From positions 2,418,001-2,482,000 of the forward strand of contig JAYWIR010000013.1 in the NCBI GenBank assembly GCA_036172245.1: DNA of 64,000 nucleotides. Direction: 5' to 3'. The notes below the pieces were generated by a model. That model did not search any database, had not been told where the DNA came from, and worked only from the letters and a program-made list of their open reading frames with translations. This document shows, piece after piece, positions 9,743 to 60,072 of the stretch; the stretch's first letter is position 1; the number at the start of each line of letters is the position of its first letter. Position numbers and translations under genes: made by a program. The DNA is from Raillietiella orientalis. Its lineage: Eukaryota.

Positions 9743-9749
9743 GAACAAA

Positions 9750-11253
<1,504 letters not shown>

Positions 11254-11265
11254 TTTTGGATTTTC

Positions 11266-11272
11266 AAAGAGG
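11266..11272 (-). promoter_or_regulatory. Candidate TCT/5'TOP polypyrimidine initiator of RPS18
   Basis: Minus-strand cctcttt lies 12 nt upstream of the ATG and fits the YCTYTYY pattern typical of ribosomal protein gene starts. Confidence 0.5.
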
Positions 11273-14357: not shown

Positions 14358-14519
14358 AAAACAACCTTGAAACTGGCATGAGGTCATTCTGGTGAGCCTC
14401 CAAGAGACTAGTAAAAGGCTCAAGGTGAACCTGACCTTCTCCAAGTTGTGGGCTGCGGGACTCGGCAGCCCACTCGGAAAGGTTGCAGGTTCTTCGTCAT
14501 GTTCGATGAAGACGCCTGC

Positions 14520-29523: not shown

Positions 29524-30164
29524 TTTTATTCCTCCCTTTGCGCCAGGGCGCCTCCCGAGCGAAACTCCTCGCGACTGCTGCTCCTGGACGGAGCCCCGGC
29601 AATAGGGGAGGAGGAAAAGGGAAGCCTAAACGAGCTTTTTACGACCGGTGAAATCATCACCGCGATAAAAAGGCTCAAGAGGCGGAAGGCGCCAGGGGAG
29701 GACGGCCTGCCCGCGGTGTTTTTTTAAAGCTTCGCGGCAGAGATGACCTCCTTGGGGCTTAGGTTGACACAGCTGATCCGGGAAGAAGGTGATGTTCCCG
29801 CCTCGTTCCGGTCAGCTAGGATGAGGTTCCTTCCTAAGAGAGGAGACCTCCGTAAGTTGAACAACTGGCGTCCGATCACGATGGTGAACACGGACGTCAA
29901 GTTGGTCGCAAAACTGTGGACTGCGCGGCTCGGACAGGTAGCCGAATCCGTAATTAGCCCGGAGCAGACTTACTCTGTTCCCGGGCGAAGTATGGAGGCT
30001 AACCTGCTCTTCGCCAGCACATGGTTTTATGGACAAGGCGAATTGAAAGAGCGGAAGGGATCTCTCGGCAACCTCAATGTAAGGGTGACCGCTGGTCAGG
30101 GTGGGGACAACCAAGCGGGCAAGGGTGCCCTAGAGATCGCAGTCGATCTCCATAAGGCGTTCGA
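29524..30164 (+). mobile_element. Tx1-like ORF2 fragment (linker to RT motif KAFD), interrupted at KAFD
   Basis: SSLCARAPP...KAPGEDGLP...LPKRGDLRKLNNWRPITMVNTDVKL...EQTYSVPGRS...IAVDLHKAFD. Confidence 0.9.
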
Positions 30165-30440
30165 TTTTCACCCGGATTCCGCCTGGGCGCTTATTGAAAC
30201 AATAAAATTTAACAAAGAAGTGCAGTGGCTGGATCATTGCTCCAGTCACGCACGAAGAAACACAGAGCCTGCCGGGTCACCGGTTCGCAGACCGGTACGG
30301 TCCACCACGGCAGCAGGAGGAAGGGGGAAAAAACAAAAAAACAAAACAAAAAGAAAAGAAAAAGTGGGAGGGTACGGGAAGGGATCACTGTAGCTGGTGG
30401 GGCCGTTGCATCCTTTGCAGGATGCCAGCAAGCTCTTGCT
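30165..30440 (-). mobile_element. Short 3' end of the KAFD-targeting Tx1-like family
   Basis: ELAGILQRMQRPHQLQ*, the family 3' UTR, and terminus ...ggaatccgggtgaaaa. Confidence 0.88.
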
Positions 30441-31190
30441 GCGCTAAAGGCCTTGCGAAGGCCGGCCGCGACCAGGGCACCTCCAACAGGTGACCATCAC
30501 CCGGATGCCGGAAGTGCGTCGTCCTCCGCGGAGGCGCCTCCGAAGAAGACTGGACGGAAGTCCAAGAATCCCAAGAGGCGCATCCCGACAAAAAAGGAGG
30601 GGGACGCACCGGCAGCCGAGGGGGAAACCGGTAGCGTGGGAACGGAGGGAGGGATTTTCCCACCCTCCGCAACCGAGCAGCTGGAGACCCCCATGGAGGA
30701 GGGGGAGAAGGTAAGTGATTGCCGCTTCCTTCCAACGGTGGGACCTGCTGAGGAGACAACCATGGAGGAGGGGGAGCAGACGGTTGACAACCGCTCCCCC
30801 CTGCCGTCCAGCGCAGCAAACGAATTGGCCCCCATGGAAGAGGGGGAGCAGGTGCGTGAGACCCGCCCCCTTCCACCGTTGCGGTCCGCCGAGGAATCGG
30901 CCCCCATGGAGGAGGGAGAACCGGTGCGCGGTGATCCCGTTCCTCCATCCGTCCCGCCCGACCAGGTGGCGGGAGCCCCACTGCCACTTTCCCAGGAATA
31001 ACACCTGGGCTCGCCTGTCGCCGTCGATTACGCGTGGCCTGCTGGAACGTGAACGGGCTGCGCGACGACGGCAACAGACGGGTCACGGCCGCCACCCTGC
31101 GTGACTTCGACCTGGCGCTCCTGCAGGAGATCCACGTGATCACTGCGGAGAACGCCCAGGAGATCGAGAGGATCACAGGGGGACGGTTGA
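30441..31190 (+). mobile_element. Tx1-like ORF1 C-terminus (PMEEGE repeats) and start of endonuclease
   Basis: Closely similar to the minus-strand copy at about 52745-53410. Reads ACWNVNGLRDDG...LLQEIH...GGRL and is then cut. Confidence 0.88.
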
Positions 31191-33660
31191 TTATCACCCG
31201 GTTGCGCCGGGGCGTTTATTAAAAACCATCCGGGAACAGAATTCCTGGACAAAGGGAAAAACAACAGACGAAGGGGGTGGGATCCCCGACACGCAGGTCC
31301 GTATGCCGAAAGTCCGGAACGGGAGGGAGGGGACCACAAATACACTACTATAAAAAATAAAAATAAAAATATGGTGGGCAGGGGACAGGGGTCTTTGGTG
31401 AGTCCGTTCCTTCCTTTCAAAGCCGGCGATGGATGCCGGCGATCTCTCTCCTTACGTCCTGTGGCAGATGAGCCCACTCGGCAGCCGACGACATGCTCGC
31501 GCTGGCTAATCCGGTGGGCTGAGAAGGATGGCCAGCTTCTCCAACTCTCGGTGGGCCTTGTCGATGGCGCGGGTGCAACAGACCGTTGCGATGACAGCAC
31601 CTAAAGACAGGCAGCCTGGCGTGAAGAAGCGGCGCATCAAATCCCTCGCGGCGTCCCCCTGGTGCAGGAGAGCTGAGGCCAGCCTCCGCCAAAGTCCTTG
31701 GAGGGCACTGCAGTCCAAAAGCAGGTGCGGGAGCGTTTCCACTTCCCCGCACCGCTTACACTTTGGGGAGACACTCCCCCGGAAACACGGTTCGTGCGCT
31801 GGTTGGAGTGAAAACCCCAATGCACCAGCATGATGACTTCGTGCTTCCACGAAAGGGGGAACACAGAAGTGTTCAAACAGGAGGGAGGGACCACAAGTTC
31901 TTCGGGGGGCACACTCAAGTGTTCACTCCACCAAAGGTGTCCCTTCGAGATGTGGCGAGGCGTGGCGGCGTCTGCCAGCTCGCAAGTCCTCCAGCCGCCA
32001 ATAGGTCGTGTTGTTCCTGCAATGGTGCAGGCGACCTCCCATCTCGCCGGTTCGCAGCTGTCATCTCTTGCCCTGAGGGCTGACAGTGCGTCGGCGAGGG
32101 GGGTGAGGGCCAGGCGGGTCCACTTCCCCTGGCTGTTGCACACTTCATCCACCATGCAGTACGGTAGAAGGTGAGCGCAACGGAGTTCCAGGAGGAAGAC
32201 ATCCTGGTGCTTTGCCCAGCCATGCAAGGGTTCCTGCCGCCAGGATTGAAAGTTCGTTGGGCGGCAGGAGATCCATTCCTGGGCTGCCAGGAGCCAGTAG
32301 AGCGGTTTCAAAGGGAAACCGAAACTTGTCGTGGGGCGCTCCGTATGTGGACGCAGCGACAGAAGTCCGTCGCTGCCGGTGCAGCGCCGCAGGAGCAGGC
32401 GCGCAAGAGCGCACCACGGAGTGGACCAAAGGTTGGCGCACAGGGCCAACATCCGAAGCTGCACCTGCAGCTCGATTCTCTCCAGCGTCAGGATGCCTAA
32501 GCCAGCATCCCGACGCGGAGCCGCCAAGTCTTTGAGGCGGATCCTGGAACTCGCAGGTCCCCACAAAGCGTTCCTCAACAGGCTGTGCGCCTGGAGCTTG
32601 GCCGAGTAGGGGGGTGGGCAAACAGAAAGCTGGGGGCGCAAGAGGGGGGCAACGAAGGTGTTCCATATCGCGGCCCGCTCCGACAGGAGGAAGCTGCCGT
32701 GGAGGAACGGGCTCAGCGCACTCGTAGACTTCCGAAGGCAGTCCAACCACACTTCCACTGGGCTGATATTCCCCAGCGGAATGCCCAGATATTGGATGAA
32801 CGAAGCGGTCGGGATCCCCAGGCGGTTCCAGTCGGACTGCCCCTCCCACGCCGCACCAATGGGTACGACCACGCTCTTGCTCCGGTTTACGCTCATGCCC
32901 GCTCCCCGGCGAATCAGTTCGAAGAAATGCTCGAGACTGGACGCCGGGGTGGTCATGGGTAAAAGGAGAAGCAGGTCGTCAGAATAGGCCGCCACGGACG
33001 GCGTTCCTGGACAAAAGCTCGGCAGGTTGGACAGCGTCAGCTTGTACGCCCTCAGCACCAACTCAAAGAAGATGCTGAAGAGAAGGGGGCTTAAGCTGTC
33101 TCCCTGCCGGATACCCTGCCGTATGGGAATGCCGTACACGTGGCGCCCGCTGAAAGAGATACAGCATAACGCGTGGCGCCAGCAGGAGCGCAAGTAGGCG
33201 ATGAGGTGCTTCGGGAGGCCTAGGCGTCCCAGAAGCTCCAGAAGGAGGTCCTGGTTTACGCTGTCGAACGCTTTGCAGAGATCGACGGCGACCGCTAAGG
33301 CTCCCGGCGTTGCATGGTGCCTTGAACACCGCCGCTTACCTTTGGAAGCAACGATTTCGGCTGCCTGGCTCTGCTACGCCACGCGCTGCTGCAACTCGAA
33401 CCATGTTCGCGCGAAGAAGAGATTCGCGTCCATGGACCGCCCGGAACAGCATACGTCTGCTCCGGACTTACCAAGGACTCCGTGAGTCTCCCCAGTCGCG
33501 CGACCCATAGCTTGGAGAACAACTTGACGTCCGAATTTACCAAGGTGATGGGACGCCTGTTGCTGGGGTGACGCAAATCACCGCCTTTCGGCAGGATCCG
33601 CACCTTTGCTGAGCGGAAAGAAGCGGGAACATCTCCCGTCTCACGCATCAGCGGCGGTCG
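31191..33660 (-). mobile_element. 5'-truncated Tx1-like element (RT to 3' end), frameshifted
   Basis: RPITLVNSDVKLFSK, VDLCKAFDSVNQ, GIRQGDSLSPLLF, AAYSDDLLL, YLGIP, CKRCGEVETLPHLLLDC, and terminus aataaacgccccggcgcaaccgggtg. Confidence 0.92.
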
Positions 33661-38796: not shown

Positions 38797-38809
38797 AAAA
38801 GGGGAAGAC

Positions 38810-40669: not shown

Positions 40670-41507
40670 TCAAACACTTGCCCTCTCAGGGCACTCAAAA
40701 ATTGCCTTGGCAGTGGTTTTAAACACTGCCTTGGCGGGGTATTGGGTATAGTTTTAAACTAGCAATAATCACGCCTCCCTTTCGTTCAGCGGCGGCGATA
40801 CCGCCCGTGCGCAAGGCTCTCGCGATCGCTAAAGGAGTTGCTTACGCCTGCGTGGAGGCAGCACTCCAAGAGGCAGCCAAGGCAACGCCTCTTACATCCG
40901 TGTAAGCAGCGCCATCTCAGGATGGCAAAGATAACTGCGACGCGAAGGAAGACGGCTGGATGCAAGTGAGAAAGATCATTAGAAAGAAACCATCAAGGTC
41001 TTCGCAGCTCTGTGTGAAGGTGAGTGGGCGAAAGAAACCCGCGAAACCTTCGCAGAAAAAGATTGCGATTCTTTCCTCCTGCGCATTCGTTCTCTCGCGG
41101 ATGGAGCGGGAAGCTGCTGCTGCGGCTAAAAGGACGAAAGTCCCAGCCGCAGTTGCAGAAATTGCTAGGAAACAGGCAGCGAACGATTTCCCTAATTCCG
41201 GGAAACAGCAGCAGCGCCTGGCAAGCCCTGGACTGTCGGATTCTGATCCAGAGTCCGACAGAAAGAGCACACAGCGCGACAACCGCCCGAAACCGCGCAA
41301 TCGCCTCCCGAAGACCCGCAAGCGCGTGGTTGCCGAGGAGGAACTGTTGCTGGGGAGCAAAGAGGAGGAAAAGGACCTCACCTCTGAACTACCGGCAACA
41401 AGCAGTGCGGCTTCGAATGGAGATGTCCAGTCTCCGAGATCGACCGCTCTGTCTCGTGACCACTCGCCGGACAAGGCGAGAAATCTGTGCTCACCTTCCC
41501 AGCCTTA

Positions 41508-43262
41508 ATGCAGGAAGTCGCCTCTTTTCGTCAATCCAGTGTATCCTGTTGGAACGTCAATGGGCTGCGCAGGGACGGAAAGAGGCGCGACGTGTCAGAC
41601 ACCCTGCGACATTTCGATTTGGCGATCCTTCAGGAGATGCATTACATCTCCGATGCGGAGGTTGCGGAAATCGAACAGCGCGCGGGTGGCACCCTGTACT
41701 GGCGAAAAGGTTCTGCACAATCGTGCGAAGTCGGTTTTCTCGTCAATAGTAGGATGGCGGGAGCGGTGTGCAGCGTTCGATTCGACCAGGAAGGGCGAAT
41801 GGGCCAACTTGCACTCAAGTGGTCAGATTCAATCGACCTCGTCGTAACCAACGTCTACGCGCCGAGCGGCTTTCATCGGCGTGTCGAAAGAATCGAGTTC
41901 TTCGACGTGCTGGAGAGCCAATGGCTCAGAAACTCCGGAGCCAGAGTGGCGCATCTCGTCGCAGGGGACTTCAACGTCCACCTTCTTTCCAACGAGACGC
42001 GGTCCCTGGCGGAACGGTCGCGGGTGGAAGAGGCATGCGCGTCGGTGCACGCGCGTAACTTGGAAGCCGGCGAGCCTGGACTGGAAAGGTGCGTGGATCA
42101 CCTCTACCTCGATGAGCACCTACTCTCGCGAGTGGGAAGGAGAGGCAGGGTGCCGTCCACGTTATCGGACCATGATAGGCTGGAGTTCGAGCTACTCCCG
42201 CCGGGCAAGGGACCTCCAAACAATGTTTGGAGGATACCGGCGGATTGGCTGAGTCATACGGAAGCGGCGGAGCATCTTCGCCGATTCCTTCGCGGCTTTG
42301 CCATCCGGGAGCTCGCAGACTGGGACCATCTTAAAAGATCGGTTCGCGAGTTTTGCGACCGGTTCCCCCTGCACCTGCTACCACGCGGCTTCCGGGAAGG
42401 CGTGGCCAATAGCAGAGCATTCCTGCAGGCGCGCACCTTCTCGAGACGTGCGGAAGTCCGGCAACTCGCAGAGTACAAGGCGAGGGCCGAGCGCCAGGTC
42501 TGGCAGTCTGGAGCGGCTATTCTGCTCGACGACCAAGGCCGGGAATGCACGGCTCCTGCCGAAGTGCGGCGAGCACTAAAGCGTCACTTCTCCTTGCTCT
42601 ACGCTAATTCCCCGACGGAAAGAGTCCTCTCCGAACTACTTTTGCCGCGGGCTGCACATGGCATCGGCGAGGAGGAACGCGATCGTCTCGACGAGCCCTT
42701 CACGTTAAGGGAAGTTTCTTCCGCCATCGCAGGACTCAAGAGACGGAAGACGCCAGGTGAGGACGGACTGCCCGCGGAGTTCTATCAGAGCTTCGCGGCG
42801 GAACTCGCCCCACTGGTTCTTAGAATCTCGACGCTGATGAGGGTGACGGGCGATGTACCTTCTTCCTTCCGCTCAGCAAGGGTGCGTCTCCTTCCGAAAG
42901 GAGGGGATCTGCGCCAACTCAACAACTGGCGTCCGATCACATTAGTGAATACGTACGTCAAGTTGTTTTCGAAGCTGTGGGTCACGCGCTTAGGGAAAGT
43001 CGCGGAGTCCGTGGTAAGCCTGGAGCAGTCTTACGCTGTACCGGGTAGATCCATGGATGCGAACCTTCTTTTCGCGCGCACCTGGTGGCAGCTTCAAGAG
43101 CGCGTTGCGGCGGATAGCCGAACAGCGGCAAGACCTTCTGCCGACTGCGTGCGCCAGTGCGGACGGACGGGAGAAACGCCGGGAGCCTTGGCACTAGCAG
43201 TAGATTTGCACAAAGCATTCGATTTTCACCCGGATTTCGCCGGGGCGTTTATTGTAAAATAA
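41508..43262 (+). CDS. Open truncated ORF2: complete APE endonuclease plus RT N-terminal part, ending FHPDFAGAFIVK* inside the antisense insert
   Basis: No stop from ATG 41508 to TAA 43260-43262. Contains CWNVNG, LQEMH, NVYAP, GDFN, VDH, SDH, PGEDG, WRPITL and DLHKAFD. Confidence 0.8.
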   Translation: MQEVASFRQSSVSCWNVNGLRRDGKRRDVSDTLRHFDLAILQEMHYISDAEVAEIEQRAGGTLYWRKGSAQSCEVGFLVNSRMAGAVCSVRFDQEGRMGQLALKWSDSIDLVVTNVYAPSGFHRRVERIEFFDVLESQWLRNSGARVAHLVAGDFNVHLLSNETRSLAERSRVEEACASVHARNLEAGEPGLERCVDHLYLDEHLLSRVGRRGRVPSTLSDHDRLEFELLPPGKGPPNNVWRIPADWLSHTEAAEHLRRFLRGFAIRELADWDHLKRSVREFCDRFPLHLLPRGFREGVANSRAFLQARTFSRRAEVRQLAEYKARAERQVWQSGAAILLDDQGRECTAPAEVRRALKRHFSLLYANSPTERVLSELLLPRAAHGIGEEERDRLDEPFTLREVSSAIAGLKRRKTPGEDGLPAEFYQSFAAELAPLVLRISTLMRVTGDVPSSFRSARVRLLPKGGDLRQLNNWRPITLVNTYVKLFSKLWVTRLGKVAESVVSLEQSYAVPGRSMDANLLFARTWWQLQERVAADSRTAARPSADCVRQCGRTGETPGALALAVDLHKAFDFHPDFAGAFIVK

Positions 43263-45432: not shown

Positions 45433-45678
45433 CTGCAAACGGCCTCACCAGCAACTGTGATCCCTTCCCGTACCCTCCCAGTTTTTTCCTTTCTTTTTGT
45501 TTTGTTTTTTGTTTTTCCCCCTTTCCCTTGCTGGGGTGGTGGACCGTACCGGTCTGCGAACCGGTGACCCGGCAGGCTCTGTGTTTCTTCTTGCTTGGCT
45601 GGAGCGATGGTCCAGTCACTGCACGTCTTTGTAAATGTTTATTCAACAATAAACGCCCCGGCGAAATCCGGGTGAAAA
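45433..45678 (+). mobile_element. Very short (about 250 bp) 3' end of the KAFD-targeting family
   Basis: The same 3' UTR and terminus as 43223-43440, abutting tcgaacg (KAFD motif of a minus-strand host). Confidence 0.88.
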
Positions 45679-46602
45679 TCGAACGTTTCTGTAGATCGAC
45701 TGCGATCGCTAGGGCTTTCTTCCCACCTGGAAATCCTGTCCCTGCCCGGCTGACGCCCCCAAAGCGGGGCTGCAAATCATTCCCTCTTCCTTTTCTTCAC
45801 TACTCTGCACATAAAACCATGTGCTCGCGAAGAAGAGGTAGGCCTCCATACTTCGCCCGGGAACAGCGTAAAACTGCTCCGGGCTAATTACGGAATTGGC
45901 CACCTGCTCCAGACGCGAAGCCCACAGTCCGGCGATCAGCAAGGCCTCCGTATTCACAATTGTGATCGGACGCCAGTTGCTGAGTTTCCTGAGGTCTCCT
46001 CCTTTCGGAAGGAGCCTCACCCTGGCTGAACGAAACGAGGCGGGAACATCGCCTTCGTCTCGGATGAGCCTTGTCATCTGAAGCAGCAGGGGTGCCAGCT
46101 CTTCCGCGAAGCTCTAATAGAACTCCGCGGGCAAGCCGTCTTCCTCTGGAGCTTTCCGCCTCTTGAGCCTTTTGATACCGGCGAGAATTTCGCCGGTGGT
46201 AAAAGGCTCGTCGAGGCTTTCCTTCTCCTCCTCCCCTATTGCCGGGGCACCTTCCGGAAGCAAGCGCCGAGAGTCATCTTGGCCCGGGGGCGCCCTGACG
46301 TAAAGGGAGGAAAAATAACACCGCACGAGGTGCCGTATTCTAGCCGGAGCCGAGTGCTCCCGGCCCTGGTCGTCCAGCAAGCTGTCCGACCCGGATTGCC
46401 AGGCTTGACTTTCGGCCCCTGCTCGATACTCCGCCAGGCGACGGATGTTGGGGGTCCTTGCGTAACGGCGGGCATACAAATACGCCCGTTCGTTACGGAA
46501 CCCATCCCAAAATCCGGGGGGCATGCGGTGCAAGGGGAACTCCTCGCAAAACTCGCGGACCGAGGCCTTAAAAAGGTCCCAATCAGCGAGATTGCGGAGT
46601 GT
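45679..46602 (-). mobile_element. Tx1-like ORF2 fragment (TLRNLADWD to the KAFD position)
   Basis: TLRNLADWD...SLYVRAPP...KAPEEDGLPAEFY*...LPKGGDLRKLSNWRPITIVN...AIAVDLQK. Confidence 0.88.
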
Positions 46603-49600
46603 CGAGCGGACGTGTCTTTTTGCTGCTCCTGAATTTCGATTTCCGGTGGTGTTTTGTGTGGTGTGGGTGGAGGATTAGGCAGCAATGCCTGATTCCACTA
46701 CCGGTGAGATTCCGGGGGCGATGACCCCATTGCCCCCGGAGGAGATGGAAGTGGGGGCTCCCGCCCCCACTGATGCGCTCCCGGCCCTACCCAGGGCTTG
46801 GAACGCCGTGGCTGCGGCACCTACACCAGCGGCTATGGCGAAAATGCGCGCTTACCTGGAGGAGGGGTAAAACCCACCCCTTCTATATAAGGTAGGCGGT
46901 CTATATTCTCCCGAGAACGCGCGCGCCCTCTTGCAGGCGATGCGCGTTCTCGGCGTACAAAAAGAGGAGCTTCTGGCTATGTCCGTCAGAAGCGGGGGTC
47001 AATTTGTGGAAGTTATCTGCAAGGAGGCAACTCTTGCGCAGAGGCTTCTGCGAACCCCCGTAATGATGGGAAGCCGGAGGCTTCTTCCAATAACGGAAGA
47101 CAGGTCGGTGATCATTCAACTGACCGGGATTACGTTTCGGATGACCAAGGAGGCCGTCCGGAACGAAATAAACAAATTTGAGACCGTCCACGCGCTGTGG
47201 GGGAAGCCAACCCTGTTCGCTGACTACGATGGGTTGTTTGGCGGCCGGGGTGCAGCGCGAGTGACGGTACGCGAAGGGTGTGAGTTTCCCCACAAACTCA
47301 CCGTCAACGGTGAATCCGTTGACGTGTGGTACGTGGGGAAACCCAAGTTCTGCGGCTGCTGCAGCAGCTTTGGTCACCTTAAAATGAGGTGTCCGAGCGT
47401 GCAGTGCCAGCAATGCAAACAAGCGGGGCACACCCGTCTGGTGTGCCCCCAAAACACAGTCCGCGTCGTGTCCGCGAAAAACGCGAGAAAGTGCGCGGCT
47501 AAAAAAAGAAAGAAGCTGGCAGCTCGTGCTGCTGCTAAGGAGGTGACGTCCGCCACCAAGGCGAAGGCCAGCCCCGAGACCCCGGCGAAAAACGCCGAAA
47601 AGGTCAAGGGCGAGGGTCAAAAGCCAGGGTGGCAGAAGGTCGACCCCAAGAAAAACTCCCCTAGGAAGGGAAAGAACGTGGCGAAACAGAGCGAAACCGC
47701 TCCGCGCCGCGAAAAAACCAAAAGCTGCTGCGTCGTTGTAGAGCAGATTCCCGCCGTCGACGAATGCGGCGCTAAAGAACTCGCTGCTGCCCCTGATCAA
47801 CCCTCCGTTGACAAAGTCAACAAGGAGGGGAGCGAGGCGGCGGCGTCCGTCATCGAGCCCACGCTCGATGACGTCGCCTTCGAGCGCGCCGCGGAGAAGC
47901 TCGCTGCCTCGCTGCAGCCGGTTGCCCCCAAGGCTGGCAAGAAGGCCGTCAGGCGTCCGGTTTCCCCTCAGGAGTCGGCCACTTCCCACCCCGAGGTGAA
48001 GGCCGGAAACACAGCATCCATCTCCGCGGCATCCCGCAAAAAGGCAGGACGAAAGTTCACAATGCCCCGGAAGATCGTCTCCCACGACGAAGGGGAAGAG
48101 ATGGCTTCCGGTAGCGAGGTTGCCATGAGCTTGGGAAACTCCCGGGACCTGTCGCCCGAGAGAATTCCACGCTCGGACACGGAGGGGATGGTGAGGATGG
48201 AGGCCGAACAGGTACCCCAGGTGCCTGAAGAGGCCTCCGTCCTCGTTCCGATGGTCCTCGTACCGATGGACCTTTCCTACACCTGCCCCGCGGCAGGTGC
48301 CGCGACGCCACTTTCCCAGCCATAATGCCGGGAATCGCCTCTCGCCGTCGTCTGCTGATCGCCTGTTGGAACGTGAACGGGCTAAGCGATGACGGCAAGA
48401 GGCGTGACGTGGCCGCCGCCCTGGCATCCTTCGACCTGGTGCTGCTGCAGGAGATCCACGTGATCTCCGCAGATGAAGCCCGGGAGATCGAACGGATCTC
48501 GGGTGGGCGGCTGTTGTGGCGTTCCGGCACCGCGAAATTAAGCGGTGTCGCCTTCCTGCTTCGGCCAGCCATCGAGACCGCAATAAAGGACGTTCGGTTC
48601 GATGACGCAGGTCGCGTCGGTCAGCTGACTCTCAGCTGGTCCGACTCTATCGACCTGGTCGTCACCAACCTATACGCTCCTAGCGGAAACTCCGCGTTGA
48701 GGGCGAAGGCAAGAAGGTAGTTCTACCTTGACCTGAGACGCGATTGGCTGACCGAACCAGGAGTTCGCAAAGCGCACCTGATCGCAGGTGATTTCAATCT
48801 GCGCCTGCTTTCAGGTGCGCCGGATACACTGAACGACCGCGTCAACGAGGTGTGCGCAGAAATGAACACGCGCAACTTGTTAGCCGGGGACACGGCCATG
48901 GAAAGCAGCATCGATCACGTGTACCTTGATCAGCACCTATGCTTTCGGGTGGGCAGGCGCGGCAAGGTACCATCCGAGCTGTCGGACCATGGTCGGATCA
49001 TGTTCAAATGCGTCCGCGCGACAAGGGTCCCCCCTCGTCAGCGTGGCGTCTGCCAGGGGACTGGCTGAAGTTTCCCGACGCGGCGGAACACCTCCGCGCG
49101 TTTATTCGGAGCTTCAAAATGCAGACACTTCAGGACTGGGACCGCTTCAAGCGGTCGGTCCAGGAGTTCTGCGACCAGTTCCCTCTGCATCGCCTACCTG
49201 CGGGATTTGGGGAGTGGCCGCGTAACGAAAGATGCTATCGTCAGGCCCGACGTTACGCAAGAACTTCCGACATGCGCAGGTTAGCGGAATACCGAGCGGG
49301 AGCCGAGAGGCAAGCCTGGCAATCCAGGTCGGCTAGCTTGCTGGACGACCAGGGCCGGGAGCACTCGGTTCCCGCTCAGAAACGCGGGATAGTGAGGAAA
49401 TTTTTCTCCTCCCTGTACGCCAGGGCGCCTCCGGAGCAGGTCGTCTCACGACTCCTGCTTCCGGAAGGTGCTCCAGCGATCGGGGAGGAGGAGAAAAGGA
49501 ACCTCGACGAGCCTTTCACGATGGGCGAGATCATCTCGGCCATCGGAAAGCTCAAGAGGCGAAAGGCTCCAGGGGAGGACGGCCTGCCTGCGGAGTTTTA

Positions 49601-52131
49601 TCAAACTTTCGCGGCAGAGCTTACTCCCCTGGTACAGCAACTCACCTTGCTGATACGCGAGACAGGTGACGTTCCCGCCTCGTTTCGTTCAGCAAAGGTG
49701 CGGCTCCTCCCTAAGGGAGGAGACCTTAGGAGCATGAACAACTGGCGTCCCATCACAATAGTGAATGCGGACGCCAAGTTCTTAGCCAAGCTGTGGGCAG
49801 AGAGCGTGGGACGGGTCGCCAACATCTTCATCAGCTCGGAACAGACATATGCTGTTCCCGGGCGAAGTATGGAGGAGAACCTGTTCCACGCTTCCACATG
49901 GTTAGAGCTCCAACAAGGAAGGAGCATAATAAGCAACCGGAATTCCGGTGCGTCCGTCGGTGGGGGACGGGATGGTCGGGAGGGGAGATGAGCCCTCGCG
50001 GTCGCAGTCGATTTGCATAAAGCATTCGATTGCGTAGACCAGAATCTCCTTTTGGAGCTTCTGGAACGCTTCGGCTTCTCGGCCTCTTTGCTGGCCTACC
50101 TGCGCTCCAGCTGGCGCGACGCGCTTATTATTGTCTTTTTTAGTTGATCCACCGTATACGGCGTACCGGTGCGATGCGGCATACGGCAAGGAGACAGCCT
50201 CAGCCCCTTGCTCTTCAGCGCCTATTTCGAATTGGTGCTGAGAGCGTACAGGGAGACTCTGGCGCACCTGCCGTGCGATTGTCCCGGTACGCCTGCGGTT
50301 TCGGCGTACGCGGACGACCTTCTGCTGCTGCTGCCTATGTCCACCCCGGCTGCGGCAATCGAAGAACTCCTCGAGGAGTTCTTCGACCTGCTGAGTCGGG
50401 GAACAGGACTGACGGTGAACAGGGCGAAGTCGTCCGTAATGCCAGTCGGAGCGGCGTGGGCAGGACAGCAGGACTGGGTCCGTTCGGGGATCTTCACGGT
50501 GAGGTACTTCAAGTACCTTCGAGTGCCGTTGGGAGATTACTACCCTGCGGAAGCGTGGTCCGGCTGCCTTCAGAAGGCTCAGGCGGCGATCGACCATTTC
50601 CAGGACGGCAGGTTCTTCCTGCATGAACGGGCCGCGGCGTGGAACGCGTTTGCGGCCCCCCTCCTTCGCCCCTTGCTTTTTGTTTGCCCCCCCTCAGCGG
50701 AGTCAAAGAAGAGGACGAAGGACTTCCTGAGGATCGCCCTTTGGGGCAGAGGGAGGCCCCGACTCCGTCTTTCGGACTTGTGCGCTCCTCGTCGGGATGG
50801 TGGTCTGGGCCTCCTGACGTTGGAGCGGCTGGAGCTACAGCTCCAGTTCCGAGTTGTCGCCTTTATGGCAGAAAATTGGTGCACCCCTTGGTGCCTCCCT
50901 GCACGTCTCCTCGTCGAGCGGGCCACCAGCAATGCGGGACTCTCGTCCTACTTTGCACTCCGAAGCCCCATCTGCCACTGCGGACTTCAACTTCGGAGGG
51001 CGGCCAAGCTGGTGAAGAACAACTCGGCGCGGATCCTCGTACGCCTTGCGAACGGTCCTGCCTGGCTGCAGGAAACCGTGCGCACGTGGGCAATGATTCA
51101 GGAGCAGAGCCCGTAACACGAGCGAATAGCTCTGTTCCGGCCTCACGCCCACCGCACGCTCCGAGAAATCTTCGAGGATCCCCGAAGGAGAGCGTGGGCT
51201 CAAAGAACCTCCCTTGCTGCGGTACTGCCTACCCTACGGGAACATCTGGGCAGCAACGTCGCGGCACAATGGGAGGTTACTGTGAAGATCGCCAGCATGG
51301 CAAAGAAGATCGGGGATTGGAGAACGGGTCAGCTCACCAACGCTGCGACCCCGAGGACCACCCCAAATGGACTCTTGCGCTGGGGCGAGCTACTGGATGT
51401 TCCGGAGGAACATCTGGAGTGGCCCCCGGTGCTCATGGACTCGCGCACCCTCCCCATGAAATGGCAACAGTCGGCACTGCTGGTGTTGCATTGGGGGCTT
51501 CCTTGCAACGCCCGCCGACACCACTGGACGCGGGGTGGTGTCAACCCTAATTATGTCAGGTGCGGGGAGAGGGAATACCTCCCCCACCTGTTAGTGGATT
51601 GTGTTGCCCCCCGTCCCTTGTGGGAACGCTTTGCCGCAGCCCTGGGGATCCCCGGAGGCAACCTTAGAGACTCTTTGCGCCCCTTCTTCGTCTGTGACGC
51701 CCTGCCTCCAGCGGCCTCGCTTGCAGCCCTGTGCTGCCTACGCGGGATCGTCGTGGCATGGAGCAAAGCGACGGGAGGATCCAGTGACAGGGATGCCAAC
51801 GTGCATGCCGCCCGTTTCCTAAGGATGGCGACGCGATGGCCCCATCTGGAACCACACACGCAACAACAGCTTGCCGGCATCCTCCAGAGGATGACGGACC
51901 CTCCCAGCAAACTGTGATCCCTTCCCGCTCCCTCTTCGGTTTTTGTTTATTTTTTTTGTTTTCTTTTTGTTTCGTTCCCCCTCCCCTCTGCTGCCGAGGT
52001 CGACTGCGCCGGTCTGCGCACCGGTAGCCCGGCAGGCTATATCTTTCCAGGGCGTGGCTGGACTACTGGTCCAGTCACAGATTGTATAGGTTTATTCTTG
52101 AGAATAAACGTCCCGGCGCACCCGGGTTTCA
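46603..52131 (+). mobile_element. Full-length (5.5 kb) Tx1-like element with disabled ORFs
   Basis: 5' motif at 46608. ORF1 spans 46685-48325 (stop at 46868; CGCCSSFGHLKMRC, CQQCKQAGHTRLVC). ORF2 spans 48325-51917 with EN, uninterrupted DLHKAFDCVDQ and YADD, plus several stops and frameshifts. Terminus is aataaacgtcccggcgcacccgggt. The 18-nt flanks match at 16 positions. Confidence 0.93.
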
Positions 52132-55017
52132 AGCGAGATTCCGGAGGGTGACGCCTCTCAGGAATTGGCGGTGTTCTTTCGCACCTGAGAGTCGCGTCCA
52201 GTCTCCAGGCAGCCGCCAGGCCCTGGAAAGGGGATCCTTGTCGCGCGCGCATACCTCGATAATTAGCCGGGAATGGTCCGACAGCGTCGACGCAACTCTC
52301 CCCCGATTGCCGACCCGTGGACACAGGTCAGCATCCAGGAAAAAATGGTCGAAGCCTTTGGCCATTCCCGGGAGATCCCCCAACAAGTTGCGCGTGCGCA
52401 TGGCAACGCACAACTCGTTGGCCGTCCGCTCCTGTGCGTGAACATCATCTGAGAGCAGGCTCAGGTTGAAATCGCCAGCAATCAGGTAAGCCCTGCGCAC
52501 GTTCGCTTCCACCAGCCAGTCGCGCTTCAGGGTTTCCAGAAACGCCGCACGTTCCTGGTACCTGGCAGGACCGCTCGGGGCGTACACGTTGGTTACGACG
52601 AGGTCAATAGCGTCGGACCACCTGAGAATCAGCTGGCCGACACGACCGGCTTCGTCGAAGCGCACGCCCTTCACGGCTGCGTCGACTGCCGGCTTCATAA
52701 AAAACGCGACGCCGCAGGTGTATCGGGTGCCGCATTGCCACATCAGCCGTCCCCCTGCGATCCTTTCGATCTCCTGGGCGTTCTCCGCGGTGATCACGTG
52801 GATCTCCTGCAGGAGTGCCAGATCGAAGTCACGCAGGGTGGCGGCCGTGTCCCGTCTGTTGCTGTCGTCGCGCAGCCCGTTCACGTTCCAGCAGGCCACG
52901 CGTAATCGACGGCGACAGGCGAGCCCAGGTGTTACTCCTGGGAAAGTGGCAATGGGGCGCCCGCCACCTGGTCGGGCGGGACGGATGGAGGAACGGGATC
53001 ACCGCGCACCGGTTCTCCCTCCTCCATGGGGGCCGATTCGTCGGCTGCGTTGGACGGCAGGGGGGAGCGGTTGTCAGCTGTCTGCTCCGCCTCCTCCATG
53101 GCTATCTCTTGGACAGGTTCCACCGTTGGGAGGGGGCGGCAATCACTCACTTTATCCCCCTCCTCCATGGGGGTCTCCGGTTGCTCGGTAGCGGAGGGTG
53201 GGAAAATCCCTCCCTCCGTTCCCACGCTGCCGGCTTCCCCCTCGGATGCCGGTGCGTCCCCCTCCTTCTTTGTCGGGATGCGCCTCTTGGGATTCTTGGA
53301 CTTCCGTCCAGTCTTCTTCGGAGGAGCCTCCGCGGAGGAGGACGCACTTCCGTCATCCGGGTCGTGGTCACCTGTCGGAGGTGCCTTGCCTGCGGCCGGC
53401 CTTCAGAAGGCCTTTCGCGCGCCGTTCTCACGCTCCGCGAGTTCGGCCGCGAGCTCTTCTGCCGCCTGTTGGAAGGCGTCGTCGTCGATTGCGGCGAGTG
53501 CGTCGCTCGGCTCCCCCTCTGTTTGCACAGAGGGTTCGCCTTCCGAGGTCGCGACTTCGTCGTCAACGAGGCGAGGGATATCTCCCCCTGTGGCGGTCTC
53601 GGGGACCTCCACACGCTCCAAAGCGACCGAACATTCGCGGAGCAACGCGCGGCGTTGTCTCCTATTTAAAGGAGATGTCGCGGGTTCCGCTGTCGGATCT
53701 TCGGTCTTCTTGCTCTTTTTACATTTAGGCTTCGCCTTATGCCAGCCCTCGCTCTCTCCAGTGTCGTTAAGAGTATCCTCGACCGGCGCTTGCTGCACGG
53801 GTTCGGGTTCTGGCTGTGGGTTCCGCCTCTCGGGTGCCTCCTTGGGCTTGTCCGGTGGCCCCGCGCGTTTCCCTTTGGCTTTTTTCAAAGCAGGGGGAGC
53901 CGGGGTTTCGCGTTTAGGACACACCTTCCGCAGGTGGCCCTTTTCGCCGCAGTGGAAACACTGGATGTGGGGCATCGTATTTTGACGTGCCCTGTTGCAT
54001 CACAGTGTCCACAGTACTTGGGCTTATCCACGTACCAGACGTCGACGACCTCGTTGCCGACGTCTAGTTTGTGGGGCAGCCCATTGTTTTCCTTGACGGT
54101 CACACGCGCTGCGGCCATGCCACTGAACAGTCTTCCGTAACTTTGGAAGATGTTCGGCTTGGTCCATACCGCGTGTACCGTACCGTATTTGCTTAATTCC
54201 TTCTTCACGCCGGCTTTTGACATGCGGAGGAATACTCCCGTAAGATGCGCTACCACAGAGCGATCCTCGGTTACAGGGAAGACCTTTCTGCCTTCCAGCA
54301 TGAGAGGGGTATTCAGCAGGCGTTGAGCCAGGCTTGCATCTCTGAAAGTAAGCTCCACCCGCTGGCCCCCACTGAGCACTGAAAGGCCTTCCAGTTCCTC
54401 CTCTTTTACTTCTAACAGCTGCAATTCCCTCTCGAAATTGCGGGCGTTGTTTCCAACGAACAGGTTTCCTACCTTGTAAATCAAGGACGGCTTGTATCCT
54501 TGTTCCAGGTAGGCCCGCAGTTCTGCTAAGGCTGCAGGAGATGGCGCTGCAGCCACGGAGCTCCAGGTCTTCGTGGATGGAGCAGACGGATCCAAGGACG
54601 CGGTTGCCCCCTTTTTCAAGGGGGCGGTTGCGGCCTTTTGCACGAGAGGGGTTGCTCCCTTTTCCAAGGAGGCGGCAGCACTCGTTTCCGGAGGGGCGGT
54701 TGCCCCCTTTTCCAAGGGGGCGGTTGCGGCCTTTTGCACGAGAGGGGTTGCTCCCTTTTTCAAGGAGGCGGCAGCACTCGTTTCCGGAGGGGCGGTTGCC
54801 CCCTTTTCCAAGGGGGCGGTTGCCCTCTTCTCCGTGGAAGCGGTTGCCCCCACCTCTGTGGGTTGGGGAGAGGAACCATCCTCTCCCCCGCCAACTTCCA
54901 TCGCGGTGAACTCAGGCATTCCTGCCATGGGACACCGGCGATGCACCACGCACTAACACACTAAAAAAGGCTTCGAAAACTCTCACGGCAGGAGCACAGA
55001 AAAAACACGACCGCACG
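52132..55017 (-). mobile_element. Tx1-like 5' half: 5' UTR, frameshifted ORF1, endonuclease up to TLRNLA
   Basis: 5' motif at 54991-55012; CGHCDATGHVKIRC and CFHCGEKGHLRKVC; ACWNVNG, LQEIH, NVYAP, GDFN, FDH, SDH. Confidence 0.92.
54600..54850 (-). repeat. In-frame 96-bp higher-order repeat (4 x 24-bp subunits) in the ORF1 N-terminus
   Basis: The unit restarts at 54600, 54696 and 54792 and encodes KGATAPPETSAAASLEKGATPLVQKAATAPLE-like repeats. Confidence 0.88.
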
Positions 55018-55656
55018 CTCCCTTTACGCCAGGGCGCCCCCGCATCAAGACGCCTCTCGGCGCTTGCTTCCGGTTGGTGCTTCGGCAATAAAGGAGGAGG
55101 AGAAGTTAAGCCTCGACGAGCCTTTTACCACCGGCGAAATTCTCGCCTGTATCAAAAGGCTCAAGAGGCGTAAAGCTCCAGGGGAAGACGGCTTGCCTGC
55201 AGAGTTCTTTCAGAGCTTGGCTTAAGATCTGGAACCCCTGCTGCTCCAGTTGATAAGGCTGATCCGAGACGAAGGCGATGTTCCCGCCTCTTGTCGGTCA
55301 GCCAGAGTGAGGCTCCTTCCGAAAGGGGGAGACCTCAGGGATCTGACCTCAGAGAACTGGCGTCCGATCACGATCGTGAATACGGACGCCAAGTTATTAG
55401 CAGGGCTATGGGCTTCGCGTCTGGGGCAGGTGGCAGAATCCGTAATTAGCCCGGAGCAGACTTATGCTGTTCCCGGGCGAAGTATGGATGCCAACCTCTT
55501 CTTCGCAAGCACATGGATGCACCTGCAGAGATGGGAAAAGAAAGGAAGGAAGAAAATCGGCAACCCCACATTGGGGCCGCCAGCCGGGCAGGGAAGGGAC
55601 ACCCGGGCGGGGAAGGGGACCCTAGCTCTCGCAGTCGATCTCCACAAGGCGTTCGA
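55018..55656 (+). mobile_element. Tx1-like ORF2 fragment (SLYARAPP to KAFD), interrupted at KAFD
   Basis: SLYARAPP...KAPGEDGLPAEF...LPKGGDLRD...WRPITIVNTDAKL...LAVDLHKAFD. Confidence 0.9.
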
Positions 55657-56072
55657 TTTTCACCCGGATTTCGCCGGGGCGTTTATTGTTCAATAAACAT
55701 TTGCAAAGACGTGCAGTGGCTGGACCATTGCTACAGCCACGCACGAAGAAACACAGATCCTGCCGGGTCACCGGTTCGCGGACCGGTACGGTCTACCACG
55801 GCAGCAGGGGGAAGGAAGAAAAACAAAAAACAAAACAAAAAAAGAAAAGAAAAGGTGGGAGGGTGCGGGAAGGGATCACTGTAGCTGTTGGGGCCGTTGC
55901 ATCCTTTGCAGGATGTCGGCAAGCTCCTTCTGTATTGCTGGATCCAGGTGGGGCCATCTCGACGCTCTCCTCAGGAACTGGGAGGTTGGCTGGATGCTAC
56001 CCTGGTCGCGTCGTCCTGGTTAGCCTTGCTCCAGGCGGTGACGATCGCGCGTAGGCAGCAGAAACCTGCTAA
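55657..56072 (-). mobile_element. 3' end of the KAFD-targeting family
   Basis: Family UTR and terminus; joined head-to-head to the next copy through an acg overlap at about 56072. Confidence 0.88.
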
Positions 56073-57560
56073 CGTTCGCGGCTCCTCTCCTCCGCCCCTG
56101 CTTTTTGTTTGCCCCCCCACAGAGAGAATTAAAAAGCGGACAAAGGACCTCCACCGTATCGCCCTTTGGGGCAACGGGAGGGCCCGAGTCCGCTTAAAGG
56201 ACTTGTGCGCTCCTCGTCGGGACGGTGGTGTGAGCCTCCTGACGCTGGAGCGGCTGGAGCTTCAGCTCCAGTTCCGATTGTCGGCACTCGTTCCAGAGTT
56301 GTGGTGCAAGTGTTGGTGCGTCCCTGCACGTCTCCTTCTCCAGCAAGCCACCGGCAAGACGGGACTGACGTCGTTTCTTGCACTCCGTCGCCGCCTCAAC
56401 CGATGCGGACTCCAGCTACGGAGGGTGGCTGCGTTGTACCGGAAAAACCCAGGATTGGTCACCTGTCGCCCTTTGAACGGTAGTGCCTGGTTGCAGGAAA
56501 CCGTTCGAACGTGGGGAAAGTTCGGCATGCAACGCTCTCAACAGGAACGAAGGTTCCTGTTTGGGGGTTACAGAAGTTGCACGCTCCGCGAGATCCTGGA
56601 GGATCCAAAGAAGAGAGCATGGGCAGGAAGAACTCCCCTCGCTGCTGCGCTGCCCTCCCTGATGGAAGATCTGGACAGCGATGTTGCGGCCAAGTGGGAG
56701 GTTTCAGTTACAATCTCCGGAAAGGAGAAGAAGATAGGAGAGTGGAAGACGGGCCAGTTAACAGACGCTGCGTCCCCGAGTACGCCTCTCAATGGACTTC
56801 TGCGTTGAGGCGCGCTGCTCGATGTTCCCATTGAACATCTGAAGTGACCCTCGGTGCTCATGAACACTTCCGCCCTCCCCTTAAAATGGCGGGAGTCGGC
56901 TCTCCTGTTGCAGCACTGGGGACTCCCCTGCAGCGCCCGCCGACACCACTGGACCTGGGGAGCGGTGGACCCCAATTGCGTCAGGTGTGGGGAACGGGAG
57001 TCCCTCCCCCACCTGCTAGTGGATTGTGTTGCCCTTGGGCCCCTTTGGTTCCGCTTTGCCGCGGCCATCGGAATCCCCTGAGGCAACTGAGGGACGTACT
57101 GAAAGCCCTCTTCGTTTCCGACGCCCTTCGGCCAGCGGCCTCGTTAGCAGCTTTGTGCTGTCTACGCGGGATCGTCACCGCTTGGAGCAAGGCTACGGGA
57201 GGACAACGCGACCAGGGTGCCATCCAGCCAGCCTCCCAGTTCCTGAGGAGAGCGTCCCGATGGTTCCACCTGGATCCAGGAATACAGAAGGAGCTTGCCG
57301 GCATCCTGCAAAGGATGCAACGGCCCCACCAGCAACTGTGATCCCTTCCCTTACCCTCCCAGTTTTTTCTTTTCTTTTTTGTTTTGGTTTTTGTTTTTCC
57401 CCTTCCCCCTGCTGCCGTGGTGGACCGTACCGGTCTGCGAACCGGTGACCCGGCAGGCTCTGTGTTTCTTCGTGCGTGGCTTGAGCAATGGTCCAGCCAC
57501 TGCACGTCTTTGTAAATGTTTATTGTTGCAATAAACGCTCCGGCGAATTCCGGGTGAAAA
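56072..57560 (+). mobile_element. 5'-truncated copy of the KAFD-targeting family
   Basis: Nearly identical (inverted) to 43223-44710. The terminus ...gaattccgggtgaaaa abuts tcgaacgccttg. Confidence 0.92.
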
Positions 57561-60003
57561 TCGAACGCCTTGTGAAGATCGACCGCGACCGCCAAGGCAC
57601 CTGGCGTTCCCTCCTTGCGTCGGCGCCTGTTATTCTTGCCTGCGGCTGTGACTTTCGCAGCAGCCTGGCTTTGCTGCGCAACGACTTCCTGCAGCTGCAT
57701 CCATGTACGCGCGAAAACGATGTTCGCCTCCATGGATCGCCCCGGAACCGCGTAGGTTTGTTCCGGGCTCACCACAGATTCCGCGATACTTCCTAACCGC
57801 GCGACCCACAGCTTCGAAAACAACTTGACGTCCGAGTTCACCAAGGTGATCGGACGTCAGTTGTTAAGTTGGCGCAAGTCTCCTCCTTTCGGCAGGAGAC
57901 GCACCTTCGCTGAGCGGAAGGAATCCGGGACATTCCCGGATTCACTCATAAGCGTCGCGAGTCTTAGCATCAAGGGAATGAGCTCCACTGCAAAGCACTG
58001 ATAAAACTCTGCAGGGAGCTCATCCTTGCCTGGCTCCCTTCGTCTCTTCAGCCCAGTGATGGCGGACGAAAATTCGTCCGCCGTGAAGGGCTCGTTGAGA
58101 CGTTCGCGTTCCTCCTCGCCGACAACACGAGCATCCTGAGACAGGAGTATCTCAGAGAGAATATCCTCCGTCGGGGATTCCGCGTACAGCAAGAAGTAGT
58201 AGCGTCTCACATTGCGGCGTACTTCGGCTGGGAATTCCCGGCATTACTGCTGGGAAGATTAAGATGTGGGGGAGCCCTCCTCTTGCGAGGCGGGCGGGAT
58301 GTCCATGGGGGTTTCGGCCTTCTCAGGCACCTGAGGCACCTGTTCGGCCTCCACCCCCTCGATCCTTTCCGTGTCCGCGCGTGGGAGTCTCTCGGGCGAC
58401 GGGTCCCGAGAGTTTCCCACGCTCATGGCACCCTCGCTTGCTTAAGCCATCTCTTCCCCTTCGACGGGGGAGACGAGCTTCCTTGGCTTTGTGGACTTAC
58501 GTCCAGCCTTCTTGCGCGGTGCTGTGGAAACGGAGGCCGCTCTTCCGGCCTCCACCTCGGGGTCGGAAGTGGGGGACTCCTGAGGGGAGGCCGGACGCCT
58601 TACGGCCTTCTTGCCAGTTTTGGAGGGTTCTGGCTGCAACGAGGCTGCCAGCTCCTCCGCGGCTTGCGCGAAGGCTACGTCATCGATGGTAGTGTCGATG
58701 ACGGACGCCGCCGCGGGCTCGCTCCCCTCGCTGTTGACAGAGTCAACAGAGAGGTGGTCGACGGTAGGGGCGAGTTCTTTTTCGCAGTGGTCGGGAATAC
58801 GCTCGACGACAACGCTGCATTCTATAATTTGCTCGCTTGCCTGCTGTTTTTTCTGGCGGTACGCGAGCTTTTTCTCCATCCTTCTCTCCTTCTTTGATTT
58901 TTTGGCTGTAGCCACCTGCCACCCAGGCTCCTGGCTAGTTCCCTCGACTTGTTCGGCGTTGTTCGCCGAGGTCTCGGGTGCGGCCTCGGTCTTGGGCGCG
59001 GCTGGCACAGCTTTCTACGCAGCTTTCTCCGCCAGCCTTTTCTGCAGAAGCCGGGCAGGTTTTTTATGGAATCTCTTGGAAACCACCCACACTGCTTCTT
59101 TAGGGCACACCTCCCTCGTGTGTCCCATGGTTCCGCATACTTGGCACTGCACATTGGGACACCTCTTTTTGAGGTGGCCCGACGTATTGATGAATGCACA
59201 GTATTTCGGCTTCCCCACATACCAGAGGTCGACGGTTTCGCCTTCGACCACCAGTTTGTGGAGAAGAGTGCAGCCCTCCCGAACGGTCACGCGCGCAGCA
59301 GTGACGCCGTGTTGCAGCCCCGTGTAATCCACGAAAGGATTAACTTTCGTCCACTGCGCGTGGACCGTTCCGTATTCCTCCAACGCGGCCCGAACCTGTT
59401 CCTTGCGCATCCGCGCGGTAACACCTAACAGGTGGACCATTATGCTGCGGTCCGCCGTAATAGGGAGGAGCCTGCGCGTCCTAATCACCACAGGGGTTTT
59501 AAGCAGTCGTTGGGCCAGCTCTGCTTGTTTGCAGATGACCTCAAAGTACTGACCCCCGCTTCGGATGGTCATAGCGCTGAGCTCCTCCTCTTTCACATCG
59601 AGAGCGCGCATGCCCTTCGATAAGGCGCGCGCGCTCTCTAAAGAATATAGATTGCCTACCTTGTAGAACAATGAGGGGTTGTACCCCTTTTCTACATAAG
59701 CCGACAATTCCGCCGCGGCTGCAGGCGATGGCGCCGACACAACGGCGCTCCACGCCCGCGATGCAGCGGGGACCGATTCTGTGGAGGAGGATGCCCCCAC
59801 CTCCATCGCCTCTGAGGGCGACGTTACCGCCGCCCCCAGGCTCTGCATCGCCTCTGGGGGCGGCGTTACCGCTGCCCATTGGCATCCCTGGTGGTCGAGT
59901 CAGGCATCGCTGCCTGATCGACCACCGAACCACACGACGCTTGCACTGGGGGAGACTTCCTGGCACGAGGAGCACCGAGAAAACACTTCCACCCTGGAGC
60001 ACG
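57561..60003 (-). mobile_element. Tx1-like 5' part: 5' UTR, frameshifted ORF1, endonuclease deleted, RT N-terminus to KAFD
   Basis: 5' motif at 59969-59990; ORF1 59848-58244 (CQVCGTMGHTREVC); TAATG at 58242-58246; jump to YFLLYAESP...LPKGGDLRQLNN*RPITLVNSDVK...AVDLHKAFD. Confidence 0.9.
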
Positions 60004-60072
60004 CAAGGCGTTCGACTGCGTAAATCAGGATCTTTTGCTGGAGCTCCTGGAACGCCTCGGTCTCCCGTTGCA
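60004..60072 (+). mobile_element. Downstream half of an RT KAFD target (KAFDCVNQDLLLELLERLGLP)
   Basis: caaggcgttcgactgcgtaaatcaggat; the first 12 bp equal 55645-55656. Confidence 0.85.

Follow-up and report, generated by a model that had tools for sequence, protein, structure and literature searches.

Site-specific LINEs (long interspersed nuclear elements) are known for ribosomal DNA (rDNA), small nuclear RNA (snRNA) genes, transfer RNA genes, microsatellites, telomeres and one DNA transposon. L1 elements end in poly(A) and nick loosely at TTTT/A. Tx1L of Xenopus laevis, which encodes an apurinic/apyrimidinic endonuclease (APE), is described in the relevant passages of PMC4494074 as residing in Tx1D, its target being a non-autonomous piggyBac DNA transposon, and Keno, Kibi and Koshi are named there as other target-specific members of the Tx1 clade; a sequence-reading APE is attributed to the Tx1 and R1 clades in the same passages and in parts of PMC4640811. 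Zepp and ZeppL of green algae, as portrayed in sections of PMC8226300 and PMC3446292, insert into their own copies, are frequently truncated at the 5' end and form nests that spare genes, and by these descriptions Zepp builds tandem arrays of 3' ends, with one cluster per chromosome. R1Bm and R2, which target 28S rDNA, combine a base-precise first-strand nick with a precise start of the cDNA. Here we describe a stretch of 64,000 nucleotides from Raillietiella orientalis (contig JAYWIR010000013.1, positions 2,418,001 to 2,482,000 of the forward strand; hereafter the window, numbered from its first letter), in which five junctions are independent, antisense and base-precise insertions of APE-type LINEs into the codons for the KAFD motif of the reverse transcriptase (RT) of other LINEs.

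The inserting lineage, whose 3' ends are here called T tails, resembles each of these systems in part. Like Tx1L, as the latter is presented in the pertinent passages of PMC4494074, it is an APE-encoding LINE of an animal host with a transposable element as its sequence-specific target, but this target is an RT coding motif of LINEs, including those of its own kin, and is always entered antisense. With Zepp and ZeppL it shares insertion into copies of its own family (the hosts at junctions J1, J3 and J4), frequent 5' truncation and gene-sparing nests. It is set apart from Zepp, as far as the descriptions of the latter go, by an orientation that flips at each junction, by the single base within an RT gene at which it is found and by its animal host; instead of tandem arrays of 3' ends in the same orientation, all five T junctions are antisense. 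With R1Bm and R2 it has in common the precise first-strand nick and cDNA start, whereas its second-strand break is variable (a 121-bp duplication, perhaps one of 12 bp, and deletions). Human L1 ORF2p offers the same APE-RT order, 5' truncation and variable duplications, but the T lineage, unlike L1, ends in GAAAA at one defined site. An exact-word search of open-access text and bioRxiv returned no published LINE that has a LINE-RT coding motif as its site, or an obligate antisense arrangement.

All five junctions (J1 to J5, Table 1) have the same structure, as had been claimed in an original prediction made from the letters of this stretch alone. Aligned in host orientation, the host side is in each case an RT fragment that reads ...AVDLHKAFD up to TTCGA, and the insert side is the reverse complement of a single LINE 3' end. 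The 16-mer that spans the joint, TTCGA followed by TTTTCACCCGG, is present exactly five times in the window, once per junction, against a chance mean of 0.04 (0 of 100 dinucleotide-preserving shuffles reach five), and a 31-nt piece of the tail is found in the whole window at these five sites only, with 0, 0, 0, 2 and 3 mismatches. The J3 host copy has one nucleotide deleted inside the motif (..CTACAG-AAACGTTCGA). In KAFD, the split separates the second from the third base of the Asp codon, which lies six codons beyond the Asp of AVD, and the RT frame is thereby broken at each junction. In an alignment with the R2Bm protein, the counterpart of the interrupted motif is AVLDFAKAFD; we take the first Asp, that of AVD, to be the catalytic one of RT motif A, and not the split residue six positions on. 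The T tails, with a 3' end of the form ..CCGGGTGAAAA (written ...AATAAACGCCCCGGCGAAATCCGGGTGAAAA for the A-group lineage, one of the two host groups described below), all end exactly in GAAAA adjoining TCGAA, without poly(A), and these exact ends argue for precise initiation rather than poly(A) slippage.

The independence of the five insertions, also part of that prediction, is upheld by separate trees of host flanks and tails, which are incongruent and whose branch lengths lie about 5-10 fold apart. Over the 540 bp before the junction the host flanks are 58.2-82.9% identical pairwise, and their tree contains a deep, fully supported split between the J2 and J5 hosts on one side and the J1, J3 and J4 hosts, together with element C, on the other, which agrees with the proposal that the hosts come from at least two RT subfamilies. 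The tails, in contrast, form a shallow star with terminal branches of 0.019-0.079. They are indeed alike, but to call them nearly identical was too strong, as their pairwise identity is 85.6-94.2% over the shared 245 bp. Differences among the hosts had been described as largely synonymous, and in 10 of 10 pairs, over 195 gap-free codons, they are most frequent at the third codon position, followed by the first and then the second (82, 44 and 28, respectively, between J2 and J5); this bias means that the hosts diverged as working genes before insertion and not as decaying duplicates. The inserts measure ~245, 271, 418, 1489 and at least 2211 bp, and their 5' truncation points are all different. 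At J2 both the ORF of the host (587 codons) and that of the insert are open, so that this event, at least, is recent.

By their predicted products, these elements are APE-type LINEs of the L1/Tx1 kind. The frame at 41460-43262 (open, 600 codons), that of the J2 host, matches the Pfam domain Exo_endo_phos (4.9e-13) and the first part of RVT_1, and the rest of RVT_1 (68-203; 4.3e-15) is matched on the opposite strand at 43974-45638, in the J2 insert. Among solved proteins, human L1 ORF2p comes closest (E 1.9e-27, to the N-terminal part of the RT) in a comparison set (PDB) whose LINE references are only L1 and R2 proteins; the L1 endonuclease is matched at 7e-4 and the R2 proteins far more weakly. 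Upstream of several copies there are ORF1-like frames that contain CCHC knuckles. What characterizes APE-type LINEs is found here, namely an N-terminal APE followed by the RT, a constant 3' end, variable 5' truncation and target-site duplications, and so is the target-sequence preference of Tx1-like elements, with all five close T tails at one base in an animal host; the poly(A) and loose T-rich nick of the L1 clade are absent, the GAAAA ends adjoining TCGAA. The protein database yielded only distant, mostly unnamed relatives, at 22-49% identity, and did not contain any ORF that crosses a junction, and the protein cluster atlas only generic APE/RT clusters. A metagenome scan for the tail gave 51 loci, all of them chance matches of 21-27 nt, and the tail 23-mer had 0 matches in collections of genome contigs and 0 in those of viral contigs.

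The hosts fall into two groups: those of J1, J3 and J4 belong to the same A group (75-80% nucleotide identity among themselves), and those of J2 and J5 to a B group, with about 60% identity between the two groups. Across the J3 duplication, the J2 insert (A') continues into an RT N-terminus of the A group; as A' carries an A-group RT, three of the hits by the T-tail lineage were on its own kin and two on a sister lineage. By these family assignments the pattern is one of self-nesting at a fixed site more than of attack on a competitor. The killing of competitors, as first proposed, is therefore only part of the picture: the RT frame of each host is broken, but three of the five hosts are the family's own kin.

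We consider it likely that related APE-plus-RT LINEs form a nest between ~26 and 64 kb, in which the A-group lineage integrates at the KAFD motif of other LINEs through target-primed reverse transcription. The proposed mechanism would start with a nick in the coding strand of a resident LINE RT gene, after ...GC(G/A)TTCGA, whose 3' OH would prime cDNA synthesis at the exact ..GUGAAAA end of the incoming RNA; as priming would occur from the coding strand, the new copy would always be antisense to its host. The 5' end would then be truncated at variable points, and the break of the second strand would not be fixed, leaving one 121-bp duplication, one possible 12-bp duplication and otherwise deletion-like outcomes. 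In this way target-primed reverse transcription would explain why the inserts are antisense, why the four T's are invariant and why the 5' ends vary, and its effect would be a self-nesting in which host genes are spared and the struck copy is disabled. At J3 the host continues on both sides of the 245-bp insert, and the two copies of its duplication (45799-45679 and 45437-45316; 121/122 bp, with 106 of 122 columns identical) both end at TT(C/T)GA, the second one running on into ...CVDQDLL and the remaining RT. From this duplication the first nick, on the coding strand, falls after TTCGA and the second break ~120 bp upstream; the TTTGA of the downstream copy is most simply read as CpG decay after the event. 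Other duplications in the nest measure 18 bp at element C (16/18 identical), ~20 bp at element 'a' and 14-16 bp at element D.

It may be a sequence-reading APE nick that sets the position, an explanation that is plausible but held tentatively. With somewhat less confidence, pairing of a read-through RNA with the conserved motif may set or sharpen it, and the two could also act together, as both fit the data. The sequence GCRTTCGA occurs at 10 sites in the window, 7 of them in RT regions and 3 elsewhere; four of the RT sites are filled, the sites of elements C and E are not, and the remaining one belongs to an orphan RT half, and a 23-nt degenerate motif matches the RT sites only (7/7). This conservation of ~23 nt before the nick in both host groups is one of the points that favour pairing, which in its strongest form, no more than a possible alternative to endonuclease reading, holds that RNA-DNA pairing and not the endonuclease mainly sets the position, so that the target is inherited from the location of the master copy. 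The read-through transcript of a KAFD-resident copy would carry the complement of ...GTCGATCTNCANAAGGCGTTCGA and would base-pair with the coding strand of another LINE at the nick, fixing where cDNA synthesis starts. Such pairing with the target is reported for R1Bm, whose accurate reverse transcription reportedly depends on downstream target sequence in its RNA (in the passage of PMC7265360 that cites Anzai 2005), and specificity is said to gain from co-transcription with the target (in a part of PMC4494074). Moreover, sister lineages with close 3' ends lie at different ORF positions, for which an inherited flank would be an easier explanation than repeated re-tooling of an endonuclease. Pairing would still need a nick at the site, however, and no junction carries a copied flank, the J2 host keeping its own divergent motif GTAGATTTGCACAAAGCATTCGA.

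Those sister lineages are recognized by their 3' ends. Nine LINE tails from five lineages (the five T tails and those listed in Table 1) share AATAAACGYYCCGGCG..CCGGGT followed by 4-6 A-rich bases, their short ends being GAAAA, GATA, ATAA or TTCA, without poly(A). This common tail is probably a recognition module for the RT; the pairs of its predicted 3' stem-loop are invariant among the nine tails, so that they give no covariation signal. Element C adjoins an antisense ORF2 (that of element A) at about residue 284, the tail of element E adjoins an antisense APE (GATAATCAACCGTCCCCC...) at about residue 80 (31194, the junction between E and piece F), element 'a' adjoins an antisense ORF2 C-terminus, element M an antisense ORF1, and the U4-headed element D lies antisense within the apparent ORF1 of B. 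All 10 LINE 3' ends with a recognisable LINE flank (five T tails, C, E, a, D and M) are antisense; beyond those, the tails at 26155 and ~14355 have a flank that is not recognised as LINE.

On the + strand, 60086-62713 comprises two successive ORF1-bearing LINE 5' parts in the same orientation (~60086-61291 and ~61332-62713), and at the adjacencies 60085/60086 and ~61291/61332 a + strand piece follows a + strand piece. These may be sense-oriented nestings whose 3' ends lie beyond the window, in which case they would be exceptions to the antisense pattern.

A DNA run (X1; 13% of sampled words) provided 223 short contigs that align with the window, mostly 90-99% alike. Three X1 joints have sides of 25-27 letters, below the bar of 31 letters, and are leads only. 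One such contig joins 46569 to 52145 (short side 25-27 letters), which would be the empty site for C. Another, with its joint at 52127->52769, links a C/E-like tail, via a homologous 31-nt stretch, to the same APE position as at the junction of E, but in another copy (52745-52769), and with 25 letters on its short side it hints at a sister lineage for which this APE position may serve as another fixed homing site. Taken further, these positions could belong to a guild of sibling LINEs that, with one 3' recognition module, splits LINE genes into homing sites, always antisense, T taking the RT active-site motif, E APE ~80, C ORF2 ~284, 'a' the ORF2 C-terminus, and M and D both ORF1, with an address inherited through the pairing of read-through RNA. 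We regard this extension as unlikely.

It could also be argued that no motif is read at all, and that LINEs insert antisense into transcribed LINE DNA generally, with KAFD only as a hot spot, either through a nick on the displaced or non-template strand or through a bias in repair. Such a general bias would fit the 10 antisense ends out of 10, and an insertion-stage bias against the sense orientation in transcribed genes is described for human L1 in parts of PMC5717806. As the whole explanation it is nevertheless improbable, since it cannot explain five hits on one base in hosts that are up to 42% divergent, and the five non-T junctions lie at five different places; it may still add to the orientation pattern.

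Several observations weigh against a lineage that homes to KAFD, and the main weakness is that the evidence consists of five events from one 64-kb window. The ends of C, E, a, D and M are likewise antisense in LINE ORFs, at other positions, and a general antisense or nesting bias, rather than motif reading, may be behind part of the pattern. Elements C and E carry a matching target and yet are unoccupied, as are the three non-RT GCRTTCGA sites, and a sixth, older T-like tail (26155, - strand) adjoins DNA without LINE similarity. Finally, both host flanks are resolved at one junction of the five (J3), and the J4/J5 locus has two competing parses, each of which needs a deletion of 0.7-1.8 kb.

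The spread of one single junction by segmental duplication, by gene conversion of the tail or by 3' transduction of the flank would also produce repeated joints, and the J2/J3 and J4/J5 loci share a layout that runs from a host through a short antisense tail and a long piece with a tail to an antisense host, with three host fragments that start at similar p2 residues (341, 375 and 380). This explanation is rejected as highly improbable: hosts are always less alike than tails (74% against 94% for J2-J5, 83% against 88.5% for J3-J4), the codon-position pattern is that of divergence under selection, the trees are incongruent and the truncation points differ. An assembly artefact is less credible still, for even in a nest that is hard to assemble, and with no listed piece among the 223 short X1 contigs bridging a T junction, mis-joins would not share one base in five diverged contexts, nor would they yield a diverged 121-bp duplication.

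Table 1. Junctions, hosts, inserts and neighbouring LINE pieces of the nest, in positions of the window
Feature	Position	Strand	Remarks
Junction J1	30164/5		16-mer TTCGATTTTCACCCGG at 30160-30175, +
Junction J2	43222/3		16-mer at 43218-43233, +
Junction J3	45678/9		16-mer at 45668-45683, -
Junction J4	55656/7		16-mer at 55652-55667, +
Junction J5	57560/1		16-mer at 57550-57565, -
Older T-like 3' part	26155..26871	-	tail ..CCGTGTGAAAA; flank without recognisable LINE
J1 host	29428..30164	+	A-group RT N-terminal fragment ending ...AVDLHKAF-GA; tblastn (p2 residues 341-598), blastn boundary, alignment
J1 insert	30165..30435	-	271-bp 5'-truncated T tail
Element E	31194..33651	-	B-group LINE; unoccupied KAFD site 33264-33286
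J2 host (B)	41460..43222	+	open 587-codon ORF2 piece, APE and B-group RT N-terminus to KAFD
J2 insert (A')	43223..45437	-	RT from KAFD on, ORF2 C-terminus, ~750-bp 3' untranslated region, T tail; includes downstream copy of J3 duplication (45316-45437), motif TTTGA
J3 insert	45438..45678	+	~245-bp 5'-truncated T tail
J3 host (A-N)	45679..46641	-	A-group RT N-terminus, same element as A'; includes upstream duplication copy (45679-45799)
Element C	46603..52131	+	near full-length sister LINE; KAFD site unoccupied; tail 70-75% like T tail
Element A, 5' part	52132..55021	-	APE 52132-52965, ORF1 53199-54952
J4 host (H6-N)	55018..55656	+	A-group RT N-terminal fragment to KAFD
J4 insert	55657..56074	-	418-bp T tail, head to head with J5 insert
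J5 insert	56072..57560	+	1489 bp, ORF2 C-terminus and T tail; 96.7% identical to A'
J5 host (B2-N)	57561..58231	-	B-group RT N-terminal fragment to KAFD
Orphan downstream RT half	60003..60085	+	starts CAAGGCGTTCGAC (KAFDCVNQ...)
Other LINE tails compared with the five T tails	27779-27803, 31194-31220, 52103-52127, 62799-62824		

Properly nested insertions were not recovered at J1, J2, J4 and J5. The 5' end of the J1 insert adjoins an unrelated + strand LINE piece, F (30441-31192), and the second half of the J1 host was not found beyond the insert, where this piece lies. With its start 11-12 nt short of the nick site, the orphan RT half shares an overlap of 12 nt with the end of the J4 host and of 11 nt with that of J1, and is a candidate second half of either event. 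Of the two parses of the J4/J5 locus, the one that takes 55657-60002 as one bottom-strand element would fit the orphan half but needs a B-type RT with a T-type tail, which the family matrices make unlikely; in the other, the J4 host and the 1489-bp piece would form a single element of A type that the 418-bp copy struck, with the loss of 720 bp, which is consistent by family but does not account for the orphan half at 60003. The host fragments might also be linked by long duplications of 390-635 bp, but these were rejected, as the pairs are only 62-75% identical. Element 'a' (26859-27803, + strand), with a duplication of ~20 bp, has split a LINE whose 3' part is the older piece at 26155.

LINE pieces of the - and + strands meet head to head at six points (26848/26857, 29427/29428, 33651/33652, 55021/55022, 56072-56074 and 60002/60003). 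Several of these meetings are at full-length 5' ends, and some of them are what an antisense insertion ordinarily leaves at its 5' junction; the host does not continue as expected at 33651, 55021 and 56072. The 5' region of element A, at the start of its ORF1, contains tandem repeats (54591-54861) with units of 24, 48 and 96 bp, the 96-bp unit being present in 2.3 copies with 98% match.

Element D (35129-40832, - strand) is a distant LINE with ~30% amino acid identity to the A and B families, and harbors ORF1 at 38810-40669 and ORF2 at ~35280-38802. It is headed by a complete U4 snRNA (40681-40818; Rfam 93.9 bits, model positions 1-138), and a 14-16 bp duplication, TTAGCGATCGCGAG(AG), lies on either side of the whole U4-plus-LINE unit (40832-40817 and 35144-35129), whose first base is U4 nucleotide +1. 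The element looks like a retrocopied transcript whose promoter was that of a U4 gene, which suggests a LINE living at or after U4 genes, comparable to Keno and Utopia at U2 and to short interspersed nuclear elements with snRNA heads.

Elsewhere in the window, another LINE 3' end (AGTAAACGCCCCGGGGCAACAGGGT..) lies at 14331-14361 on the + strand, and ~360 bp past this tail there is a decayed, uninterrupted RT motif region (14700-14910, +; ..AFTVNLRRASA*FDQELLL..). The AT-rich left part contains a SUN-domain exon (8081-8530, -) that is most like insect SUCO proteins (55-63% identity), a resemblance that by itself points to an animal host, probably of the arthropods or their near relatives. Base composition contrasts sharply between the genic part (6000-12000, 32-40% G+C) and the LINE nest (26000-64000, 55-62% G+C).

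A LINE addressed to the conserved active-site motif of LINE RTs would represent a new class of target. The KAFD site is hard to mutate away and is present wherever LINEs exist, and an insertion there carries no host cost and disables one retrotransposon copy per hit. The finding therefore bears on the self- and mutual limitation of transposon families, and on the growth of nests and of transposon-built heterochromatin. If the precision comes from the endonuclease, the lineage would offer a natural APE nuclease re-aimed at a defined site of 10-20 nt; if instead the guild of sibling LINEs proved true, the address of a retrotransposon would be copied from the location of its parent and not encoded in its endonuclease.

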